Source: an uncultured Gemmatimonadales bacterium
GTDB taxonomy: Bacteria > Gemmatimonadota > Gemmatimonadetes > Longimicrobiales > RSA9
Length of the DNA: 64,000 nucleotides
Direction: 5' to 3'
NCBI GenBank assembly: GCA_963708135.1
Contig: OY970192.1
Span: 3,200,001-3,264,000, forward strand
Under the pieces are notes generated by a model, which was not told where the DNA came from, did not search any database, and saw nothing but the letters and a program-made list of their open reading frames with translations. Shown in pieces: positions 17,218-34,980 of this stretch. Each line of letters starts with the position of its first letter. The stretch's first letter is position 1. Both the position numbers and the translations under genes were made by a program.

Positions 17218-18050
17218 GTCGGACGAGTCCCGGCCGATGCCCCGGGGACGCCCCATCGGCGTCCCCCGGGTCGCTCGCCCAGATGCTTCAGCTTCTCGAC
17301 CGCGTTCTGGTTTTCCGGGTTGAGCTGCAGCGAATGGCGGTAGGCGCGGATCGCGTCCTCCCTCCGTCCCGCCGCCGCGTATGCCTCCCCGAGGCTGTCG
17401 TAGACGTTCCAGGAGTCGGGGTGCAGGCGCCCGTTCAGCTCGAACAGCACCACAGCCTCCACCGCGTCGCGGGGCAGGATCGCGTAGCCGAAGCGATTCA
17501 GCCCGTTCTCTGGCAGCAGGAGGTGGTCCGGCGTCGCCTTGCGCTCCTTCTCGAACAGGGCGACGGCCTCCTTGACCTGCCCGGCGCGCGCCAGCCTCAG
17601 GAACTCCTGCTGCGCCGCCACGCGGACGTTGGTTTGCGGACGGCTGATCGTCCACACGTACGCCGCCACTGCTTTCTGCTGCTCCCGTGTGAGCGGCATG
17701 CCGCCGCTCGGGTGCATCTCGAAGCGCCGCGGAGTGACGGCCTTGAATTCCTCCTTCTTCACGCCCCAGAAGATGGTGTGGAGGATGCCATCGTAGTCTC
17801 CGTCGCTGTGCAGCCACTCGACGTCGGCGAGGCTGGGCGCGAACCGGCCGCTGCCCACGCCGGCGACGGCGTGGCAGGCGATGCAGCTGCCGTTGTTGAA
17901 GATCTCGCTGCCGGCGAGGACGCGCTCAGGCGTCACGCTGTCGGGGATGGCCACGGGCCTGGCCGGCGGGTTCCGTTGCGCCGCCACCTCGGTGGTGGAT
18001 CCGGTCCACGCGAGAAGCATCATGCCCAGGATGAAGCCCGCTCTGCTCAC
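17166..18050 (-). CDS. Exported c-type cytochrome fused to TPR repeats
   Basis: Signal peptide; CIACH heme motif; APSLAD.EWLH; distal Met candidate in EMHPSGG; C-terminal NVYDSLGEAY...SLQLNP TPR. Confidence 0.8.
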   Translation of the reverse strand: MSRAGFILGMMLLAWTGSTTEVAAQRNPPARPVAIPDSVTPERVLAGSEIFNNGSCIACHAVAGVGSGRFAPSLADVEWLHSDGDYDGILHTIFWGVKKEEFKAVTPRRFEMHPSGGMPLTREQQKAVAAYVWTISRPQTNVRVAAQQEFLRLARAGQVKEAVALFEKERKATPDHLLLPENGLNRFGYAILPRDAVEAVVLFELNGRLHPDSWNVYDSLGEAYAAAGRREDAIRAYRHSLQLNPENQNAVEKLKHLGERPGGRRWGVPGASAGTRPTQDGTEQSGRAPWVCST

Positions 18051-18222
18051 GATGCTCGTCTCCGGATCTCGAGGAGGGTGGGCCGGCGAGGCGCTGAGGC
18101 TCACGGATTTCGGGGTGCTCGAACGGTGAATCCGGCGACGTGGCGATCGGTTCCCGCCGGTGGCGCGCGGAACGAGAACATGCGACGGCTTCGCCTTCCG
18201 TGCCGGCTCGGAGCGCGGGAGT

Positions 18223-19275
18223 CTACGGCCTCGCCGCTGAAGGGCTGCCGCCGGCTTCGGTGAGCGCGCGCTCGAGAACGGGGTCGTACTTCCGGGCGAA
18301 GTCGTCCGCGGACCAGGGCACCACCTCGTCGGGCGCGATCCCGTTCCACTCGATCACCTTCCTGTCGGCGGTATAGGCGATCCAGCGCGGCACCGAGTAC
18401 TGCCATCCCTCGCCGAGGTCGAAGCGCACGGGGTTGCCACTCGCGCCGATCGTGGTGTCTCCGAGCACGCGCACGTTCGGCAGCTCGCGCATGGCGGAGA
18501 TGAAGCCCTCGCTGCTGCTCGCGTCTCCGCGGCCGACGAGCAGGTACACGGGTCTCAGGTACTGCCACGTGCCGCGAGGCGAGATCGGCTCCGACATCAG
18601 CGGCCCGAGATCATCGTGACGGGGGCCGTTCCGGTACTGGACGTAGCCGCCGATCCACGCCGTCGCCGAGAACCGGCCGGCGACGGCGTACGCGATCGAG
18701 CTGTTGCCGCCCGGATTGGTGCGGACGTCGAACACGATCGCCCGCGTTTCACGCAGGCTGTCCAGCGCGACGTCGACCGCCGTCGCCTGCACGTGCTCTC
18801 CACTCCAGTCGCCGATCACGATGTAGCCGACATCGCCGAAGCGGCCCCACCCCCATCCGCTGCCCGCGGTCGTGTGCCAGCCCGCCGTGGCGACGTAGGC
18901 CAGCCACGTATCCCGGTCCCAGTTCCGCGCGATGGACGGGGCATACGTCGGGACGGCCGCTCCATCCGGCCGGTAGAGACTCGCATGAAGGTCCCGCAGC
19001 GGCGCCAGCATCTCGAGCACGAGATCGCTGAGCTCCGCCTGGCTCGTGGCTGCCTCCGCCCGTGGTCGGTACTCCGCCCGCGCGGCCTCCCAGTCCACGC
19101 CCTTGTACGGGAAGTAGGGATACGTCTCGTCGAAGTGCCGCCAGAGGTCATCGAAGCGGCCGACGTACGCGCGGCCGTCGGGACCGGTCGCGTCGCTGCA
19201 TCCGCCCGCGGCGTAAGCCAGGGCGAGGAGCGCGATGCGGGCGGCTTTCGCGACACCGAATCGGATGCGGGCCAT
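18223..19275 (-). CDS. S41-family peptidase lipoprotein
   Basis: Lipobox AGGC; FDDLW..FDETYPYF..KGVDW; DVRTNPGG; ASSSEGF; GIAPD motifs. Confidence 0.88.
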   Translation of the reverse strand: MARIRFGVAKAARIALLALAYAAGGCSDATGPDGRAYVGRFDDLWRHFDETYPYFPYKGVDWEAARAEYRPRAEAATSQAELSDLVLEMLAPLRDLHASLYRPDGAAVPTYAPSIARNWDRDTWLAYVATAGWHTTAGSGWGWGRFGDVGYIVIGDWSGEHVQATAVDVALDSLRETRAIVFDVRTNPGGNSSIAYAVAGRFSATAWIGGYVQYRNGPRHDDLGPLMSEPISPRGTWQYLRPVYLLVGRGDASSSEGFISAMRELPNVRVLGDTTIGASGNPVRFDLGEGWQYSVPRWIAYTADRKVIEWNGIAPDEVVPWSADDFARKYDPVLERALTEAGGSPSAARP

Positions 19276-20800: not shown

Positions 20801-20831
20801 ACCCGGGTCGGCAGCCCCGAACCGCCGTTGT

Positions 20832-20925
20832 TGCCTATTCCGGTGATTCCGTCCACGAGTTCCGGAGGAAGCCGTCCAGCGGTTCCGGCGCAAGCCGTCC
20901 ACCCGTTCCGGTCCATGCCGTCCAC
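20832..20925. mobile_element. Isolated exact inverted copy of the IS21 right end
   Basis: 94 bp that match the reverse complement of 23616-23709. Confidence 0.9.
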
Positions 20926-21268
20926 ACGGGAGCTTGGCCCGCTCTACGCCGGCCGACTTCGCGGCCGGCGCTCTGTTCACCCCAGGCCCTGAGAAGCTCG
21001 AAAATTCTCGCTTGTAATGGACCAGAAACGGGGTGAGGAGCAGAAGTTGAGTATTCCGGCCCAAGCCGGCCACCGATTCCGGTCGAAGCCGGCCACCGAT
21101 TCCGGACCATTCCGTCCACCCGTTCCGGAGCAATCCGTCCACCGATTCCGGGGATTCCGTCCTGCCATTCCGGCGGAATCCGTCCACCCTTGGGGGAGCG
21201 AAGCCGACGCTGGATGACCTGAACCAGACCAGCCGCCACCTTGTGCGGGTCCTGAACCCGGAGGAGAG

Positions 21269-22840
21269 ATGGCGGCGGAGAGGTTGTCCATGCGGAAGAT
21301 CAAGGAGGTGCTGCGGCTGAAGGCTGCAGGCCATGGGAACCGGGCGATCGCCCGGAGCCTGCGGATCGCGCACAGCACGGTCCGCGAGTACCTGAACCGG
21401 GCCGAGGCGGCGGAGCTGGGCTGGCCGCTGCCGGAGGGGCTGACGGAGGCGGAGCTCGAGGCCCGGCTTTTTCCGCCGCCGCAGCCGTCGAACGTGGCGC
21501 GTCCGCTGCCGGACTGGGCGGAGGTGCACCGGGAGCTGAAGTCGAAGAAGCGGAGCGGCGTCACGCTCCAGCTGCTCTGGCTCGAGTACAAGGAGGACCA
21601 CCCGTACGGGCTCCAGTACAGCCAGTTCTGCGAGCGGTACCGGCGGTGGCGGGGCGGGCTCGACCTGGTGCTCCGGCAGGAGCACCGCGCCGGGGAGAAG
21701 GTCTTCGTGGACTTCGCCGGCCAGACGGTGCCGGTGGTGGACCGGGGCACCGGGGAGATCCGCGAGGCCGAGATCTTCGTCGGGGTGCTGGGCGCCAGCA
21801 ACTACACCTACGCCGAAGCGTGCTGGAGCCAGGAGCTGCCCGAGTGGATCGGCGCGCACGTGCGCATGTACGAGTACTTCGGCGGGGTGCCGCAGCTCAC
21901 GGTCCCCGACAACCTGAAGGCAGGGGTCCGCCACGCCTGCTACTACGAGCCGGACCTGAACCCGACGTATCACGAGCTGGCGGTGCACTACGGCACGGCC
22001 GTGCTGCCGGCCCGGGTCCGGAAGCCGAGGGACAAGGCGAAGGCGGAAGCGGGCGTGCTCCTGGTGGAGCGGTGGATCCTGGCCCGGCTCCGCAAGCTGA
22101 CCTTCTTCAGCCTGGCCGAGCTGAACCGGGAGATCGCTCGTCTGCTGGAGCTCCTGAACGACCGGCCCTTCCAGAAGCTGGAGGGCAGCCGCCGCTCGCT
22201 CTTCGAGACGCTGGACCGGCCGGCGCTCCTGCCGCTCCCCGAGCAGCGCTACGAGTTTGCCCGCTGGAAGAAGGCCCGGGTCAACATCGACTACCACATC
22301 GATGTCCTCGGCCACTACTACAGCGTGCCCCACACCCTCGTCCGCCAGCAGGTGGACGTGCGCATCACCCGCACGAGCGTCGAGATCCTGCACTCCGGCC
22401 GCCGGGTGGCGGCGCATCTGCGGAGCCACCGCAAGGGTGGCTTCAGCACGGAGCCCGGACACCGGCCCAAGGCGCACCAGAAGCATCTCGAGTGGACGCC
22501 GTCGCGAATCGTCGCCTGGGCCGAGAAGACCGGGCCCGCCACGGGCGAGCTGGCCCGGCAGATCCTCGAGAGCAAGCCGCACCCGGAGCAGGGCTACCGC
22601 GCCTGCCTCGGTCTCCTGAGGCTCGGCGATCGACACTCTCCCGAACGGCTCGAGGCCGCCTGCGCCCGCGCGCTGCGGATCGGCGGCGTCTCGTACCGCT
22701 CGGTCAAGTCCATCCTCCAGAGCGGACTCGACCGCCTCCCCCTGGAAGAGCAGGCGAGCCTCGCCCTGCCCCAGAACCATGAACATCTGCGCGGCGGGAC
22801 CTACTACGCCGCCGCCGCCAACGGAGCCCTCTCATGCTGA
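21269..22840 (+). CDS. istA: IS21 transposase IstA
   Basis: N-terminal HTH, HRAGEKVFVDFAG, VPDNLK, KPRDKAKAE DDE motifs. Confidence 0.95.
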   Translation: MAAERLSMRKIKEVLRLKAAGHGNRAIARSLRIAHSTVREYLNRAEAAELGWPLPEGLTEAELEARLFPPPQPSNVARPLPDWAEVHRELKSKKRSGVTLQLLWLEYKEDHPYGLQYSQFCERYRRWRGGLDLVLRQEHRAGEKVFVDFAGQTVPVVDRGTGEIREAEIFVGVLGASNYTYAEACWSQELPEWIGAHVRMYEYFGGVPQLTVPDNLKAGVRHACYYEPDLNPTYHELAVHYGTAVLPARVRKPRDKAKAEAGVLLVERWILARLRKLTFFSLAELNREIARLLELLNDRPFQKLEGSRRSLFETLDRPALLPLPEQRYEFARWKKARVNIDYHIDVLGHYYSVPHTLVRQQVDVRITRTSVEILHSGRRVAAHLRSHRKGGFSTEPGHRPKAHQKHLEWTPSRIVAWAEKTGPATGELARQILESKPHPEQGYRACLGLLRLGDRHSPERLEAACARALRIGGVSYRSVKSILQSGLDRLPLEEQASLALPQNHEHLRGGTYYAAAANGALSC

Positions 22841-23586
22841 CGCACCAGACCCTCGACCAGCTCCACGAGCTCCGCCTCACCGGCATGGCCCAGGCCCTGG
22901 AAGAACAGATGCGCATGCCCGACGTCGAGAGCCTCGCCTTCGACGACCGTCTGGCCCTCCTCCTGGAACGGGAGATCACCTTCCGCGACGACCGGCGCCT
23001 CACCCGGCTCCTCCAGGTGGCCAAGCTCCATCTTCAAGCCGCCATCGAGGACCTCGACTTCCGAAGCCCTCGAGGACTGGAGCGATCCCTCATCCTGCGC
23101 CTCTCCAGCGGCCAGTGGATCCGCGACCACCAGAGCGTCCTGATCTCCGGCGCCACGGGCACCGGCAAGAGCTTCCTGGCCTGCGCCCTCGGTCACAGCG
23201 CCTGCCGCCAGGGCCTGTCCACCCGCTACTACCGCTTCTCCCGGCTCCTCGGAGAGCTGGCTCTGGCCCGGGCCGACGGCTCCTACGCCAAGCTCCTCGA
23301 CCGCCTGGCCAAGACCCAACTCCTCATCCTCGATGACTTCGGCCTCGCTCCACTCACCGACTCCGAGCGCCGTGATCTCCTCGAGGTCCTCGAAGACCGC
23401 TACGGCCGACGCGCCACCCTCGTCACCAGCCAGCTGCCCGTCGAGCACTGGCACGCGGTCATGGGAGACGCCACATTCGCCGACGCCATCCTGGATCGGC
23501 TCGTCCACAACGCCCACACCATCACCCTGAAAGGAGCATCCATGCGGCGGAAGAAGAATCAGACCCCCGCCGTCGCCGAGTCCTGA
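22834..23586 (+). CDS. istB: IS21 helper ATPase IstB
   Basis: Walker A GATGTGKS, Walker B LILDDFG, ADAILDRLVHNA. Confidence 0.95.
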   Translation: MLTHQTLDQLHELRLTGMAQALEEQMRMPDVESLAFDDRLALLLEREITFRDDRRLTRLLQVAKLHLQAAIEDLDFRSPRGLERSLILRLSSGQWIRDHQSVLISGATGTGKSFLACALGHSACRQGLSTRYYRFSRLLGELALARADGSYAKLLDRLAKTQLLILDDFGLAPLTDSERRDLLEVLEDRYGRRATLVTSQLPVEHWHAVMGDATFADAILDRLVHNAHTITLKGASMRRKKNQTPAVAES

Positions 23587-23709
23587 ACACGCCAGCGTCG
23601 CTTCGCTCCGACCGGGTGGACGGCATGGACCGGAACGGGTGGACGGCTTGCGCCGGAACCGCTGGACGGCTTCCTCCGGAACTCGTGGACGGAATCACCG
23701 GAATAGGCA

Positions 23710-24302
23710 TCCGGATCGTAGACAATGACGCCGATCGCCTCGAGGAGGTGCGGCGCACCCGCTTCGCTTTCACGCCCGCCCGCTCTCCTCAGCCGCTCTA
23801 CGGCGCGCTCGATCAGCGGTAGCGTCAACTTCTTGCGCCCGGCTGCAGCTTCCTCGTAGCTGGGGAGGGCGAGAACGCCACCGACCACGGCGAACGGAAA
23901 TTTTAGATGGATGTTGACCGCGAACGTCCGGATGTCTCCGAACCGGTTCCAGATGGCGCGGCCAACCGCGAGGTTGACGGGTTTGATCTCGACGGCGAGT
24001 CGCAGGCCGTCCAGGCGGTGGGCCTCCGAGACGTCCGCCTGGACGGTACGAAGAGCCCCGGCAACTTTCGTCTCGCTCGCTTTGCCGGATTTCGCGAGGT
24101 GAGGGATGGAATCCGCCAGGTCGTTCAGCAGCACCTCGCCGAGGGTCCGGGAGAGGCGAATCTGAGCGCTCTTCTTCGGTCCGGCTGCAAGCGTTTCGGC
24201 TGCGCGCACGTACTCGCTCGCAGCCTCGAGGTAGTGCTCGAGCCGAGCCGACTTGAGCGATTCGAGGCGGTTGACCTTCGGCAGTCCGGTCTTGTCTTTC
24301 AT
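23710..24302 (-). pseudogene. PD-(D/E)xK nuclease, type II restriction endonuclease-like, truncated by IS21
   Basis: E..VAGALRTVQADV...LAVEIKPVN...NRFGD pattern; the frame runs directly into the IS21 end after IVYDPD. Confidence 0.6.
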
Positions 24303-24616
24303 GTCAAGCGAAGATCCGTTGACGGGCCGCCGAAAGCAAGCACCATCCGAACCGCCCGATCCCGGACCTCTGCGGAGTACCGCTTCGGCTTGCTCATGAC
24401 CCCATCCTCTCAAGATCTGGGGCCTCCGGCAAACCCGGGGTGGTTCACACCGTGAAGTAGCGGGTCATCAGCAGGTAGAGGCACCGCCGCAAGGCCGGTG
24501 ATCTCTGCCGCGGCCGTGAGCAGGGCTTGAGCGGACGAGTTTCCACCCGCCCTGGCGAGCAACTCCCCGTGCTTCTCCCGGGCCCTCGGCCGAAGCTCTG
24601 CCTATGGACCCATCGT

Positions 24617-24860
24617 CTACTCCTCACGCTGCGCCTGTGCGATGGTGATCCATCGGTCGCGGTCCTCCAGCGCAATCGATGGATCAGTGCGGACCGCCTC
24701 AAAGAAGTCTTGCTGGCCGCCGACGGTCGGTACCTGCTCGGACCGGTAGTTCGCGCCGGCAGCCAACGTGGGTTCGAGGCTCAGATGCTCGGCGACCGCG
24801 GCTGCGCTGCAGTGGAGTGTCCGCGCCAGATCCTCGATCAAGGTTCGGGGGATCGAAGTC
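24617..24860 (-). pseudogene. C-terminal fragment of an XRE/HTH-like protein
   Basis: SIPRTLIEDLARTLHCSAAAVAEHL...AGANYRSEQVP...QQDFFEAVR reads as natural protein; the 5' part is replaced by IS4 sequence. Confidence 0.45.
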
Positions 24861-25392
24861 GCGGAGAATACGCCCTCCCACCGCCGGTACTCCCGCCCGG
24901 TCAACCACTCGACCGGCCTGCGCTGCGATCAAACGATCGTCCTCGACACGTTCCATTCCGCCGCGCGCTACCCGGAGCCGCTGCGCCGCATCAGCTATCG
25001 TGACGTGCTCAGCGGCAGCGGGTTCGTCTTCCTCACGAACGACTTTCAGCTGCCGGCCCTTACGACCGCCAACCTCTACCACGAGCGCTGGCAGGTCGAG
25101 CTCTTCTTCAAGTGGATCAAACAGCACCTCCGGATCAAAGCCTTCTATGGCACAACGCCCAACGCGGTGCGGACTCAGATCTGGATCGCCATCTCCGTCT
25201 ACGTCCTCGTGGCGGTCGTCCGGAAGCAGCTCCAGACCGAACGCGACCTCTACACTTTGCTAAAGATCCTGAGCATCACTCTGCTCGCGAAAGTGCCGCT
25301 GCAGCAAGCACTTACGGCGGACGCCTATACTCTCCAAGAGACCCAAAGTCGTAACCAGTTGTCACTCTTCGACTTGTGACCGGACACTACTG
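24860..25392 (+). mobile_element. IS4-family remnant: 3' third of transposase plus right inverted repeat
   Basis: GLRCDQTI...FVFLTN...LYHERWQVELFFKWIKQHLRIK (YREK motif), stop at 25379, then terminal ACCGGACACTACTG. Confidence 0.88.
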
Positions 25393-25785: not shown

Positions 25786-26180
25786 AGTCAATGGCGGCTG
25801 AACATGCCCCACCCGGAGGGGGTGACGAGCCGCAGGGCGTCGACACCTGCCGGCGGCTCCCTCTCCGTCGTCGTTGAGAGTCCTCCCCCTCAGGCGCCGG
25901 GGTGAGGACGGGGAAGAGGTCGGTGTGGTGGGCGCATGCGGTAGCTGTTGCCGCGGATCGAGAGGACGTAACAGTGGTGGAGCAGCCGATCGATCAGAGC
26001 GGCGGCCATGACCTCGTCACCGAAGATCTCGCCCCAGTCCTCGAAGTCCTTGTTGGACGTGAGGACGGTGGAAGCCATTTCGTAGCGCCGGGTCATGAGC
26101 TGGACGAAGTGCATGGCTCCGGTGCGGCTCACGGGGAGGTAGCCGATCTCATCCACCACCAGCACGGCCGGGTCGGCCCT
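25786..26180 (-). pseudogene. istB: Remnant of a second, different IS21: 3' half of istB and a degenerate end
   Basis: VLVVDEIGYLP...RRYE..STVLTSNK.F..WGEIFGDEVMAAALIDRLLHH...GNSYRM; GTCAATGGCGGCTGAACATGCCCCAC near 25787 resembles an IS21 terminal repeat. Confidence 0.8.
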
Positions 26181-26369
26181 CCACCACCCGATCACCCCGC
26201 AGCTACCGAGTGAAGGGGTTCGCTGCTTCGGAGATAGTATGACTCGCGCGCCGGGACAATCATGGTGTCTGTTTTTCGGCCCGATAACGGCCGTCTAGGC
26301 CGCCGGCGATCGCCGGACCGGGCCGGCCAGCGCGGTCAATTCCGTCCGATTTCGTGACTCCGAAAACAC

Positions 26370-26399
26370 GAGAAAGGCCCACCGTAGCTGGCCTTTCTC
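26370..26399 (-). terminator. Hairpin downstream of pilC, likely terminator
   Basis: GAGAAAGGCC-N10-GGCCTTTCTC, followed on the minus strand by GTGTTTT. Confidence 0.55.
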
Positions 26400-26403
26400 C
26401 GAG

Positions 26404-26479
26404 CGACAACGAATCAATTACCCACAAAACAACGAATCAACTGACGCGGCCGCAACGAATCAAGTGACGTTCAGGGACA
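26404..26479. mobile_element. Tn7/Mu-like transposon end with three transposase-binding repeats
   Basis: CAACGAATCAA at 26407, 26430 and 26453 (23-bp period), then terminal ...CAGGGACA, which reads TGTCCCTG inward on the minus strand. Confidence 0.65.
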
Positions 26480-26487
26480 CACACCCC

Positions 26488-27690
26488 CTACTTCACCGCG
26501 TTCACCATGTCGAAGATCGGCAGGTACATGGCGACGATCATCCCGCCGACGACGACGCCGAGCACGACGATCATGACGGGCTCCATGGCGGCGAGCAGGG
26601 CTTCGACGGCGGCGTCAACTTCCTCGTCGTAGAAGTCGGCGATCTTGTTGAGCATCTCGTCGAGGCCGCCGGTCTGCTCGCCGACGTTGATCATCTGCAC
26701 GACCATGGGGGGGAAGACGTTGCTCTTCTTGAGCGGCTCGGAGATGGTCTCGCCGCCGGCGATGGAGGCGCGGCTCTCCATGACGGCGTCGTGGATGACG
26801 CGGTTGCCGGCGGTCTTGGCGGTGATCTCGAGGCCGTCGAGGATGGAGACGCCGGAGGCGACGAGGGTGCCGAGGGTGCGGGTGAAGCGCGCGACGGCGG
26901 ACTTTCGCAGCATGTTGCCGAGCACGGGGATGTGGAGGCTCATCTTGTCGATGGCGAGCTCGCCGTTGTCGGTGCCGTAGTAGGCGCGGATGGCGAAGAT
27001 GGCGCCCGCGATGGCGGCGGCGACGGCCCACCAGTAGGCCTGGAGGAAGGCGGACATGCCAATGACGATGCGGGTGGGCAGCGGCAGGGCGATGCCGGCG
27101 TCGGCGAACATGGTCTGGAAGGTCGGGATCACGAAGATGAGCAGGATCGCGATGGCGCCGGCGGCGACGGACATGACGACGGCGGGGTAGATCATGGCGC
27201 CCTTGATCTTGCGGCGCAGCGCGTCGGCCTTCTCGAGGAAGGTGGCCAGGCGGAGCAGGATGGTGTCGAGGATGCCGCCGGCCTCGCCGGCGGCGACCAT
27301 GTTGGTGTAGAGGGCGGGGAAGACCTTCTCCTGCTTGCGCATGGCGTCGGCCAGGGTCTGGCCGGACTCGACGTCGTAGAGGATCTCCTCGATGACCTTC
27401 TGGAGGTGCTTGTTCTCGCTCTGCTTGGCCAGGATGTCGAGGGACTGCACGAGGGGCAGCCCGGAGTTGATCATCGTGGCGAACTGGCGCGTGAAGATGA
27501 CGAGGTCGCGGGTGGAGACGCCGGTCCCGAAGCTGAGGTTGAGGGCGCCGGCCTTCTTCTCCTCGACCTTGACGGGGATGAGGCGCTGCTTGCGCAGCAG
27601 CTGGACGACATCGTCGCGGCTGGCGAGGTCGATCTCGCCGTTCTGGATCTCGCCCGTGGTGGCGCGTGCGGAGTAGGTGAACGTCGGCAT
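26488..27690 (-). CDS. pilC: Type IV pilus platform protein PilC (T2SS F family)
   Basis: FTRQFATMINSGLPL, AGEAGGILDTILLRLA, VGEQTGGLDEML motifs. Confidence 0.95.
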   Translation of the reverse strand: MPTFTYSARATTGEIQNGEIDLASRDDVVQLLRKQRLIPVKVEEKKAGALNLSFGTGVSTRDLVIFTRQFATMINSGLPLVQSLDILAKQSENKHLQKVIEEILYDVESGQTLADAMRKQEKVFPALYTNMVAAGEAGGILDTILLRLATFLEKADALRRKIKGAMIYPAVVMSVAAGAIAILLIFVIPTFQTMFADAGIALPLPTRIVIGMSAFLQAYWWAVAAAIAGAIFAIRAYYGTDNGELAIDKMSLHIPVLGNMLRKSAVARFTRTLGTLVASGVSILDGLEITAKTAGNRVIHDAVMESRASIAGGETISEPLKKSNVFPPMVVQMINVGEQTGGLDEMLNKIADFYDEEVDAAVEALLAAMEPVMIVVLGVVVGGMIVAMYLPIFDMVNAVK

Positions 27691-30674: not shown

Positions 30675-31037
30675 AGAGTGGGCGAGTGGGAGAGTGGGAG
30701 ACCGGGGCGACGCTCGCGGCGGCCGACCGCGACCGGGCCTCGCACCGTGCCGGGTGCCGCACGTGCAGGGCCCTTCCTCCGGACCGGGCGACGCCACTCT
30801 CCCACGCCCTCCCCCAGAGTGGGAGAGTGGGAGAGTGGGAGACCGGGGCGACGCTCGCGGCGGCCGACCGCGACCGGGCCTCGCACCGTGCCGGGTGCCG
30901 CACGTGCAGGGCCCTTCCTCCGGACCGGGCGACGCCACTCTCCCACTCCGAACGGCCGCCGCAGGCAATGAGGGCCGCGGAAACGCCGGCACCCTGCCCT
31001 GCCCGGCACAGCACCCACTCTCCCACTCTCCCACTCT
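30675..31037. repeat. Two octamer-bracketed cassettes (141-bp offset), same family as the 32-35 kb array
   Basis: GAGTGGGA runs on the left, TCCCACTC runs on the right, internal modules homologous to the 225-bp unit. Confidence 0.9.
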
Positions 31038-31045
31038 TGCTTCCA

Positions 31046-31906
31046 TCATCGGTCCAGGCTCAGGAATGGCTTCAGCTTGGCCAGCTTCGCGGGGCCAATG
31101 CCGTTGACCTTGAGGAGGTCCTCGGCGGTGCGGAAGGGGCCGGACTTCTCGCGCAGGGCCACGATGCGGGCGGCGAGGGCGGAGCCGATGCCGGGGAGCT
31201 TCTGGAGGTCGGCGGCGGAGGCGGTGTTCGGGTCCACCAGCGCGGCTGGAGCCGCGGGATCCCTGCCCTGCCCTCCCGCCCGACGCGCGGACGCGGGGCG
31301 ACTTCGGGCGACGCGACCGCGCGAGGCCGGGCTCGCGGCGGAGCCGGGCTCCGATTGCGGCGACGCTGCGGCGTCCCGGGACCGGCCCGGTTCCACGATT
31401 TCCGTCACCTCCGCCCTCGCGGCCCGACCGTTCGCCACCCGGCCGCTCGATGCACCGTCGTCGCCCGACCGCGCCGCGAGCTCCGCGTGCGTCCGGATGG
31501 GCAGGCCGTGCGAGGCGCCGAAGGTCAGGTGGGGCAGGAGGCGGGCGATGCGGCCGGCGCTCATGCCGGGGACGGTGCCGAGGTCGTCGCTGCCGGCGAA
31601 AGGGCCGTCTTTCTCGCGGGCGGCGATGACGGCGTGGGCGAGGGTCGGCCCGATGCCGGGGAGGCGATCGAGCTGCTCGGGCGGGGCGGCGTTGACGTTG
31701 ATCTTCTCCGTGCTGCCGAGCGGGCGAGCCGCGCGCCGGTCCTTCTCGGCCGCGGCCTGGCTCTGGCGCTCGATTCTGGCGAGGTCAACGGTGGGCAGGT
31801 CCGGCACGGGCACGGGTGGCCGCAGCACGAGCCGCCCCGCGCCGGCGAGGACGAGCAGGAGCAGCACGAAGCCGACCGCGCGGGATTCGTCCCTGGAGAG
31901 GCTCAT
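31046..31906 (-). CDS. comEA: ComEA-family DNA-binding protein with two helix-hairpin-helix domains
   Basis: N-terminal TM helix; INVNAA...LDRLPGIGP and [15 protein letters not shown]...[16 protein letters not shown]; 3' end of ORF 31046..34945. Confidence 0.88.
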
Positions 31907-31932
31907 CGCCGGTTCAGGGGAGGGTGGGGGAA

Positions 31933-34900
31933 TGGGAGAGTGGGAGACCGGGCGACGTTCGCGGCGGCCGACCGCGACCGGGCCTCGCACCGTGCCGGGT
32001 ACCGCACGTGCACCGGCCTTTCTCCGACCGGGCGCACGCCTCCCCCTTTTCCCACCAGAGTGGGAGAGTGGGAGAGTGGGAGACCGGGGCGACGTTCGCG
32101 GCGGCCGACCGCGGCCGGGCCTCGCACCGTGCCGGGTACCGCACGTGCAGGGCCCTTCCTCCGGACCGGGCGACACCTCCGACTCCGAACGGCCTTCGCA
32201 GGCAACGAGGCCTGCGGAAACGCCGGCATCCTGGCCTGCCCGGCGCTGCACCCACTCTCCCACTCGCCCACTCCCTCCCCCAGAGTGGGAGAGTGGGAGA
32301 GTGGGAGACCGGGGCGACGTTCGCGGCGGCCGACCGCGGCCGGGCCTCGCACCGTGCCGGGTACCGCACGTGCAGGGCCCTTCCTCCGGACCGGGCGACA
32401 CCTCCGACTCCGAGCTGCCTTCGCGGGCAACGAGGGCCGCGGAAACGCCGGCATCCCGGCCTGCCCGGCGCTGCACCCACTCTCCCACTCGCCCACTCCC
32501 TTCCCCAGAGTGGGAGAGTGGGAGAGTGGGAGACCGGGGCGACGTTCGCGGCGGCCGACCGCGACCGGGCCTCGCACCGTGCCGGGTACCGCACGTGCAG
32601 GGCCCTTCCTCCGGACCGGGCGACACCTCCGACTCCGAACGGCCTCCGCAGACAACGAGGGCCGCGGAAACGCCGGCATCCCGCCCTGCCCGGCGCTGCA
32701 CCCACTCTCCCACTCGCCCACTCCCTTCCCCAGAGTGGGAGAGTGGGGGAGTGGGAGACCGGGGCGACGTTCGCGGCGGCCGACCGCGACCGGGCCTCGC
32801 ACCGTGCCGGGTACCGCACGTGCAGGGCCCTTCCTCCGGACCGGGCGACACCTCCGACTCCGAGCTGCCTTCGCGGGCAACGAGGGCCGCGGAAACGCCG
32901 GCATCCTGCCCTGCCCGGCGCTGCACCCACTCTCGCACTCGCCCACTCCCTCCCCCAGAGTGGGAGAGTGGGGGAGTGGGAGACCGGGGCGACGTTCGCG
33001 GCGGCCGACCGCGACCGGGCCTCGCACCGTGCCGGGTACCGCACGTGCAGGGCCCTTCCTCCGGACCGGGCGACACCTCCGACTCCGAGCTGCCTTCGCG
33101 GGCAACGAGGGCCGCGGAAACGCCGGCATCCTGCCCTGCCCGGCGCTGCACCCACTCTCCCACTCGCCCACTCCCTCCCCCAGAGTGGGAGAGTGGGAGA
33201 GTGGGAGACCGGGGCGACGTTCGCGGCGGCCGACCGCGACCGGGCCTCGCACCGTGCCGGGTACCGCACGTGCAGGGCCCTTCCTCCGGACCGGGCGACA
33301 CCTCCGACTCCGAACGGCCTCCGCAGACAACGAGGGCCGCGGAAACGCCGGCATCCTGCCCTGCCCGGCGCTGCACCCACTCTCGCACTCGCCCACTCCC
33401 TCCCCCAGAGTGGGAGAGTGGGGGAGTGGGAGACCGGGGCGACGTTCGCGGCGGCCGACCGCGACCGGGCCTCGCACCGTGCCGGGTACCGCACGTGCAC
33501 CGGCGTTTCTCCGACCGGGCGCGCGCCTCCGGTTCCGAGCTGCCTTCGCGGGCAACGAGGGCCGCGGAAACGCCGGCATCCTGCCCTGCCCGGCGCTGCA
33601 CCCACTCTCGCACTCGCCCACTCCCTCCCCCAGAGTGGGAGAGTGGGGGAGTGGGAGACCGGGGCGACGTTCGCGGCGGCCGACCGCGACCGGGCCTCGC
33701 ACCGTGCCGGGTACCGCACGTGCAGGGCCCTTCCTCCGGACCGGGCGACACCTCCGACTCCGAGCTGCCTTCGCGGGCAACGAGGGCCGCGGAAACGCCG
33801 GCATCCTGCCCTGCCCGGCGCTGCACCCACTCTCCCACTCGCCCACTCCCTTCCCCAGAGTGGGAGAGTGGGGGAGTGGGAGACCGGGGCGACGTTCGCG
33901 GCGGCCGACCGCGACCGGGCCTCGCACCGTGCCGGGTACCGCACGTGCAGGGCCCTTCCTCCGGACCGGGCGACACCTCCGACTCCGAACGGCCTCCGCA
34001 GACAACGAGGGCCGCGGAAACGCCGGCATCCTGCCCTGCCCGGCGCTGCACCCACTCTCCCACTCGCCCACTCCCTCCCCCAGAGTGGGAGAGTGGGGGA
34101 GTGGGAGACCGGGGCGACGTTCGCGGCGGCTGACCGCGACCGGGCCTCGCACCGTGCCGGGTACCGCACGTGCAGGGCCCTTCCTCCGGACCGGGCGACA
34201 CCTCCGACTCCGAACGGCCTCCGCAGACAACGAGGGCCGCGGAAACGCCGGCATCCTGCCCTGCCCGGCGCAGCACCCACTCTCCCACTCGCCCACTCCC
34301 TCCCCCAGAGTGGGAGAGTGGGGGAGTGGGAGACCGGGGCGACGTTCGCGGCGGCCGACCGCGACCGGGCCTCGCACCGTGCCGGGTACCGCACGTGCAG
34401 GGCCCTTCCTCCGGACCGGGCGACACCTCCGACTCCGAACGGCCTCCGCAGACAACGAGGGCCGCGGAAACGCCGGCATCCCGCCCTGCCCGGCGCTGCA
34501 CCCACTCTCCCACTCGCCCACTCTCCCACTCTGGCGGGGGGGAGTGGGAGGGCGGGAGGGGCGCCCGCCTCCGACTCCGAACTGCCTTCGCAGGCAACGA
34601 GGCCCGCGGAAACGCCGGCATCCCGCCCTGCCCGGCGCTGCACCCACTCTCCCACTCGCCCACTCTCCCACTCTGGCGGGGGGAGTGGGAGGGCGGGAGG
34701 GGCGCCCGCCTCCGGTTCCGAGCTGCCTTCGCGGGCAACGAGGCCCGCGGAAACGCCGGCATCCCGCCCTGCCCGGCGCTGCACCCACTCTCCCACTCGC
34801 CCACTCTCCCACTCTGGCGGGGGGAGTGGGAGGGCGGGAGGGGCGCCCGCCTCCGACTCCGAACTGCCTTCGCGGGCAACGAGGGCCGCGGAAACGCCGG

Positions 34901-34980
34901 CATCCTGCCCTGCCCGGCGCAGCACCCACTCTCCCACTCGCCCACTCTCCCACTCTGGCGGGGGGAGTGGGAGGGCGGGA
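31933..34980. repeat. Tandem array: one ~123-bp partial unit, 11 x 225-bp units, 3 x 141/142-bp units
   Basis: 225-bp units start at 32056, 32281, 32506, 32731, 32956, 33181, 33406, 33631, 33856, 34081 and 34306; short units start at 34529, 34671 and 34812. Confidence 0.95.

Follow-up and report, generated by a model that had tools for sequence, protein, structure and literature searches.

What kind of DNA is the short array of phased repeats that directly follows pilC in an uncultured Gemmatimonadales bacterium? We analyzed a window of 64,000 nucleotides, by which we mean the whole stretch from position 3,200,001 to 3,264,000 of contig OY970192.1 (GenBank assembly GCA_963708135.1), in which pilC, encoding the platform protein of a type IV pilus, is followed by three identical repeats and a hairpin. 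An earlier note on this DNA had described the array as a Tn7/Mu-like transposon end and the pilC 3' end as its candidate new attachment site. We conclude, with a probability of roughly 80%, that a site-specific mobile element uses the stretch directly behind pilC and that the array is one of its ends. That the element moves by a mechanism of the DDE class, with an architecture like that of Tn7, Mu and IS21, is a more tentative proposal to which we give somewhat less than even odds.

The array itself is real and non-random. The pilC gene lies on the minus strand (26488..27690; Pfam T2SSF, E 1.2e-69) and ends with a TAG stop codon at 26488-26490; residues 1-400 of its product could be aligned to PilC in 20/20 family relatives. 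Reading on from the stop codon on the same strand, a linker of 11 nt with a G-run and a GT run (26477..26487), which varies among copies, leads to the terminal segment or core half-site CCCTGAACGTCAC (26464..26476), which holds the first conserved bases of the module. Then follow three exact copies of TTGATTCGTTG at 26453..26463, 26430..26440 and 26407..26417, all on the minus strand. The spacing that had been noted for these repeats, 23 and 23 bp from start to start, was confirmed together with their invariant cores, which are perfect over 33/33 nt. Dinucleotide shuffles of the window yielded a mean of 0.15 matches to TTGATTCGTTG, and three or more matches in 0/100 cases. The whole 5.45 Mb genome contains three exact copies, all of them in this array, and no second cluster was found in it with up to 2 mismatches allowed. 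With the motif present nowhere else in the genome, a binding site of a host regulon is unlikely.

On the inner side the repeats are accompanied by a conserved stem-loop (26370..26399, minus strand) with perfect arms of 10 bp (26370-26379 and 26390-26399). Its consensus in five homologous copies is a stem of 13 pairs, of which 6 are compensatory. As to the earlier idea that this hairpin supplies the operon terminator, the hairpin is conserved, its T-tail is weak (a T-run of 4 in the window, none in the other copies), and a simple terminator scan makes no call. It is probably a terminator or a 3' stabilizer of the pilC transcript. Further inward, an A-rich stretch followed by ACCATGAT (26254..26277, minus strand; alignment columns ~258-282) is common to four pilC-linked copies, which indicates that the module reaches ~220 bp inward from its terminus. 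At the outer side, the conserved block opens with CCCTGAA (from 26476 downward) and not with the TGT that had been taken as the terminus: CCTGAA is invariant in nine homologous ends, the bases ahead of it vary, and TGT precedes the conserved block in 2/9 ends only, those of the window and of genome G424.

The same module was found in other members of the family. Our family set comprised 73 genomes, including that of the window and four flagged as unpublished (G412, G413, G416 and G453); G416 was also among the nine relatives first inspected and forms a row of the PilC tree. Directly behind the pilC stop codon, a module of ~260 bp, complete or decayed, is present in 6/73 of these genomes and in a metagenome contig (L171). 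The pattern search alone retrieved 5/73 genomes including the window's, two of these with the array at other genes. In G425, G443 and L171 the module follows the pilC stop directly; in G423 it ends after the first repeat, in G424 there are 14 nt left, and in G442 one degenerate repeat is left and then the same hairpin. The linker between stop codon and conserved block is 7-14 nt long, with unlike sequences, in the window, L171, G425, G423 and G424, and 32 nt in G442. In G461, a diverged relative of the array follows the stop codon of a MacB/FtsX permease gene, and in G446 one lies next to a second gene of this kind. The carriers do not cluster in the PilC tree, the branching of which is not resolved, and module identity between lineages was 72-78% versus 79-90% for the adjacent pilC coding end. 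The cargo behind the module differs: an istB fragment and debris of insertion sequences (IS) in the window, two GHKL ATPase genes and a split DruA gene in G425, and a second module followed by a DUF262/HEC-05 gene in L171. This recurrence in several lineages with different cargo supports the view that the pilC 3' flank is a preferred insertion site. Presence of the repeats behind pilC in all relatives with no island, which the earlier note would have held against such insertion, is not what we saw: they stand there in 6/73 genomes and one metagenome contig.

The array was absent from the nine relatives first inspected, in each of which the DNA after pilC was different, and the repeat pair occurred in 0/400 other genomes of a phylum-wide sample, also when two mismatches were allowed. 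A metagenome scan for three repeats with 23/23 spacing gave 22 stretches, among them one true homologue (L171), and a viral scan for the repeat pattern gave 3 stretches, none of them related. In a scan of 27/64 parts of a genome collection the pattern also fitted (TTGATTCG)n microsatellites, and L082 from G443 was the sole true homologue by eye among the matches listed. The full G443 site had no blastn match in plasmids and phages, and nothing was returned by an Rfam scan of 14 pilC-flank loci or a tRNA scan of 9. As far as searched, the module family is confined to one bacterial family.

The most informative copy is found in G443, which carries the array twice, on contigs C67 and C95. On C67, pilC is followed by the array and its hairpin, past which the contig extends for another 235 bp. 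C95 carries an inverted set of three repeat copies, with spacings of 26 and 35 bp, continues through a junction that reads GACCTTCAGGG, then TTGATG, then CCCTGAAGGTC, and goes on with three direct copies spaced 23/23 bp and the hairpin (loci L082 and L149 are one stretch of C95 and were counted once). The tail of C67 overlaps the reverse-complemented head of C95 by ~130 bp, with the first 53 nt identical and ~92% identity overall, and the gene for a DUF4143 protein is single in G443. If both contigs are joined, pilC is followed by the 23/23 arm, ~230 bp, an opposite-strand gene for a DUF4143/AAA_14 ATPase (PADLOC PDC-S01) and the inverted 26/35 arm; past this arm stand TTGAT, a G, the end of an older copy and two further modules. 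TTGAT is then present on both flanks of the copy, in a single case and with the pilC-side terminus placed by register with other copies. Given this contig join, G443 apparently contains a complete non-autonomous element of ~1.95 kb that has entered between pilC and the end of an older copy. The window array corresponds to the contiguous-site arm of this copy. A matching inverted opposite end and a 5-bp flanking repeat, as the earlier note had predicted, are seen in G443; the window's own genome has no second end. The window feature is an orphan end or relic, for which neither a partner end nor a cognate enzyme is encoded.

The DNA after pilC is a hotspot with stacked ends, in which variable islands of defence genes are seeded. 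Besides the module described so far (type A), modules B, C and D were seen at L128, L171, L180, L188, L195 and L210. They are non-coding and consist of a TGTGG start, three AT-rich repeats at ~22-23 bp and a hairpin. The first bases are TGTGGTTCGCC in module B and TGTGGGYTTAC in module C, and both of these modules end in GTTGCGGGTGTCACA. Sister modules with this layout follow pilC at differing junctions in G409, G423, G424, G447 and L171, those of the first four genomes being of type C. In G409 and G423, module C is followed by genes for type I restriction-modification, and in G423 and G424 it lies inside the truncated A module; the fourth variant (D) lies elsewhere in G423. Doubled termini were observed in G409, G424, L171 and G403. 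C-type ends were detected in 0/121 other high-completeness genomes of the phylum. No recombinase was found near the second C-type end of G423 (contig C2), and integrases near contig starts of this genome (C6 and C3) showed no link to the module. In G407, an integron platform stands right behind pilC (L136, G407:C35 300-18437), with a Xer/IntI-like integrase gene (17250-18437, minus strand) and at least 16 attC-like repeats of ~150 bp each; a run of 9-bp tandem repeats separates the integrase gene there from the pilC terminator. In G411, duplicated copies of the last ~150-170 bp of pilC flank an insert of 1.4 kb (L137, G411:C2 16040-17640), and G412 contains a stray pilC 3' fragment ahead of unrelated DNA (L139, G412:C566), an observation from that unpublished genome alone. 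These duplications in G411 and G412 point to a different kind of integration, one within the 3' end of pilC.

In the model that we favor, the array would be the pilC-proximal end of a small family of site-specific and now non-autonomous insertion elements. Such an end would comprise a terminal segment of 8-13 bp (CCCTGAA...), three protein-binding sites two helical turns apart, the hairpin and ~150 bp of inner sequence, and would pair with an inverted end of dispersed sites. Several copies of a transposase, probably acting in trans, would bind the phased sites and join the element to its target a few bases past the pilC stop with a 5-bp duplication, and new copies would enter between pilC and older ones, so that ends stack. 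In the window, one end would have survived at ~26213-26476, its interior having been replaced by IS debris and its partner end lost, and the hairpin would now probably end the pilC transcript. A DDE-class enzyme is suggested by the terminal segment with its phased sites, by the contiguous and dispersed arms, by the 5-bp flanking repeat, by the stacking of new copies beside the target gene, by sister modules with TGTGG termini and unrelated flanks, and by the 23-bp phasing of repeats in the IS21 ends of the window. Contiguous sites in one arm and dispersed sites in the other are the pattern of Tn7 and Mu.

Several observations weigh against this interpretation. No transposase gene of any kind adjoins a copy, be it one of the 7 linked to pilC or one of the 2 others, and the domains TniQ, Mu-transpos_C and TnsA_N were found in 0/5 carrier genomes. 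The inverted termini at the two full junctions have the 11-6-11 geometry that is canonical for tyrosine-recombinase cores, and a short repeat on both flanks is equally left by tyrosine recombination, a 5-bp flanking repeat also being expected from the overlap region of a recombinase. The conserved block has no TG start, TG being located 3 nt inside. The join in G443 depends on an imperfect contig overlap, the pilC-side terminus of this copy departs from the consensus at about half of 14 positions, and the number of complete copies known is one.

On the inner side, the window module is truncated by a neighbor, the C-terminal fragment of an IS21-family IstB (25890-26195, minus strand; positions 153-233 of 238 of the Pfam profile IstB_IS21), which has no DNA match elsewhere in its own genome. 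The last block common to other copies (26254-26277) lies ~60 bp outward of this fragment. Among contigs of 4 sequencing runs, the module was covered together with pilC and the istB fragment in one run only, possibly that of the source sample. Beyond the istB fragment lie a DDE_Tnp_1 fragment (24768-25379, Pfam), a complete IS21 (~21043-23709; istA 21269-22840, istB 22834-23586) and a solo IS21 end (20831-20929). These annotations bear out the switch from core genes to IS and defence debris that had been placed at pilC. The complete IS21 exists in three genome copies with 99.4% identity and interrupts an open reading frame (ORF) of 284 amino acids (23559-24413, minus strand) without a family match in Pfam, PADLOC or NCBIfam. 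All IS21 ends in the window bear phased repeats of 23 bp in 3.4-5.5 copies; since these resident ends share the phasing of the array, it is a property of this transposase superfamily. On the other side of the locus, tandem arrays lie upstream of pilB (30675-34980). They consist of a 225-bp unit repeated 11 times at 32050-34523 with 96% matches, flanked by units of 137-141 bp at 30675-30946, 31924-32180 and 34426-34980.

Other transposon families might have provided the end. A true Tn7-family end, in which the three repeats are TnsB sites and pilC is a new attachment site for TnsD/TniQ, would explain the architecture, the 5-bp flanking repeat of G443, the insertion just downstream of a conserved gene, the tandem stacking and the defence cargo. 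Tn7-like elements are described as rich in defence genes, and their adjacent insertions yield multiple ends (PMC8649781). At least three sites per end, inverted and contiguous in one arm and dispersed in the other, are indeed seen in G443 (right arm 23/23, left arm 26/35). However, no signature of the core genes tnsA, tnsB, tnsC and tniQ was found in the carriers tested: the genes beside the pilC-proximal end are cargo, and searches for TniQ, Mu-transpos_C and Tn7_TnsA-like_N gave nothing in five carrier genomes, nor in 14 control genomes, the TniQ search being validated only by matches in G412 and G429. TniQ was present in 3/73 family genomes, none of them a module carrier. The conserved 5'-TGT terminus of the Tn7 family is likewise missing from the module, with TGT ahead of 2/9 ends only; it is the sister modules B, C and D that start with TGTGG. 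G429, the one of these three that was inspected and a genome without pilC modules, has a Tn7-like set (L205, G429:C141 2700-7715: a TnsB-like ORF of 903 amino acids, an ATPase ORF and TniQ) next to a sequence that by eye reads as a tRNA gene, and the ends of this element are unrelated to the module. A search for the rve domain missed this TnsB-like gene and hence says little. The main texts of the Tn7 surveys examined do not mention pilC, and in the literature searched no paper connected Tn7-like elements, integrons or hotspots of this group with pilC. Assignment of the array to Tn7, the core of the earlier proposal, is accordingly improbable in our view. The IS21-family element of the neighboring istB fragment would offer another origin, the array being the left end of an internally deleted copy: the istB fragment has the same orientation, lies ~280 bp inward and is unmatched in the genome, whose own IS21 ends have the 23-bp phasing. 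Yet ist genes stand beside 0/8 other copies, which also answers the earlier concern that the same end might flank istA/istB elsewhere, and the repeat motif differs from that of the IS21 copies in the window, as the earlier note had stated. Likeness to other copies has faded before the istB fragment is reached, the istB stop is not followed by an inverted copy of the repeat, and no multi-copy IS with such ends was found in the 400 phylum genomes, the 73 family genomes, the metagenome scan or the 27/64 parts of the genome collection. Each genome has a single locus (G443 has two unless its contigs are joined), and not the several unrelated sites, with istA and istB between two ends, that are typical of IS21. 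We regard this origin as highly improbable.

Recombination by a tyrosine integrase has to be taken more seriously, although we still hold it to be unlikely. Here the array would be a relic attL of an integrative element without an integrase of its own but mobilizable in cis; CCCTGAA would serve as a core-type half-site and TAGGG at the pilC stop as the bacterial one, a heterobivalent tyrosine integrase would bind the three repeats as its arm-type sites, and the palindromic junction of G443 would be an attP-like site arising from tandem integration. There are two full cores with 11-bp inverted sites around a 6-bp spacer, one in G443 (11/11 matches, with 3+3 arms) and one in G446 (8/11 matches, with one arm; chance ~0.001 per register). 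The arm repeats differ from the core in sequence and are inverted on the two sides, and TTGAT, or an imperfect stretch of ~12 bp, is common to both junctions. The same place was also used by other recombinase-type events, namely those of G407, G411 and G412. The only full junction, that of G443, is explained about as well in this way as by a DDE transposase. Against an attachment site stand the absence of a PF00589 integrase gene from the window and from the contigs or stretches holding copies, the unrelated flanks of sister module C, which show no common core, and the pilC-side half-sites, which in our own reading match poorly (4-6 of 9 positions). XerCD was rejected as the enzyme because the host dif is canonical and unrelated to the module; this dif-like site (G000:C1 ~1506342) has an 11-6-11 structure with ATAA...TTAT and lies near the cumulative GC-skew maximum (~1.11 Mb), the minimum being at ~4.01 Mb. 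For attI or attC sites of an integron, the repeats have the wrong ends, GTTG followed by C or T and not a GTTRRRY box, and blastn of 16 attC-like repeats of G407 against the genome and loci gave no match. The window's genome has an integron of its own ~140 kb from the module (G000:C1 3066924 to ~3088000, outside the window), in which a Xer/IntI-like integrase, 47.6% identical to the post-pilC integrase of G407, points towards a long cassette array with boundaries reading TAAC...GTTA. Finally, the module could have been inherited vertically as a host feature, a protein-binding array or 3' untranslated element with the native pilC terminator that was lost in most relatives. Position and orientation are the same in all pilC-linked copies, the module and the 3' end of pilC have diverged to a similar degree, the hairpin is kept by compensatory change, and the decay within a genus (G442, G424) looks vertical. 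This is nevertheless an improbable account of an array that occurs in 6/73 family genomes from lineages standing apart in the (unresolved) PilC tree and in none of the 400 other phylum genomes. The motif has no further site in the genome, the second, inverted arm of G443 encloses a cargo gene with a flanking repeat present, and related arrays stand behind other genes in G446 and G461.

A broader possibility, to which we assign a low probability, is that the pilC flank is the attachment site of an undescribed family of site-specific elements with at least four types of ends (A to D), moving defence genes by an enzyme not yet recognized. One candidate for it is a divergent system of the Tn7/Mu type, for which pilC would be a new target. 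A bolder candidate is the DUF4143 AAA ATPase, which is the sole gene within the one apparently complete copy and the C-terminal part of which weakly matches a CARF/PD-(D/E)XK model of PADLOC (E 1.6e-5). Arm arrays do not flank the DUF4143 genes of the window's own genome.

If the site-specific element is confirmed, pilC would be added to the safe sites at which mobile DNA inserts, such as glmS, tRNA genes and comM, and a compact, two-armed element with one gene would be a tractable entry point. A hotspot of defence islands without mobility genes could then arise by orphan ends piling up behind a conserved gene. The feature in the window is a relic, and its value lies in marking the border of the island and, probably, the end of the pilC transcript.

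Among known systems, the module shares with Tn7-like ends a short terminal segment with three phased sites at ~22-23 bp, contiguous and dispersed ends, and, as at attTn7, a 5-bp flanking repeat (in G443), insertion past the stop codon of a conserved gene, stacked orphan ends and defence cargo. It differs from them in that signatures of tnsA, tnsB, tnsC and tniQ are absent from the carriers tested, the conserved terminus is not TGT, cargo follows the pilC-proximal end, the complete copy is non-autonomous, and the insertion lies 7-14 nt past the stop. With the terminal repeats of IS21, which are binding sites of IstA, the module has in common direct repeats with a 23-bp period near the terminus, as in the IS21 of the window, but the motif is another one, the other copies lack ist genes, and each genome has a single, site-specific locus. 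Integrons combine a simple site with direct repeats in their attI sites, and in G407 the position behind pilC is taken by a Xer/IntI-like integrase with its attC-like array; in contrast to these, the module has no GTTRRRY-type box and no blastn likeness to the G407 repeats. Lambda-type att sites resemble it in the inverted 11-bp cores with a 6-bp spacer and in the arm repeats of other sequence on both sides; the attP-like junction between new and old copies, the short identical stretch at both junctions and the lack of an own integrase also recall the tandem accretion of integrative or cis-mobilizable elements at a gene's 3' end. Unlike lambda-type sites, however, the module has no integrase at any copy and a weak half-site on the pilC side, and its sister modules abut unrelated flanks.

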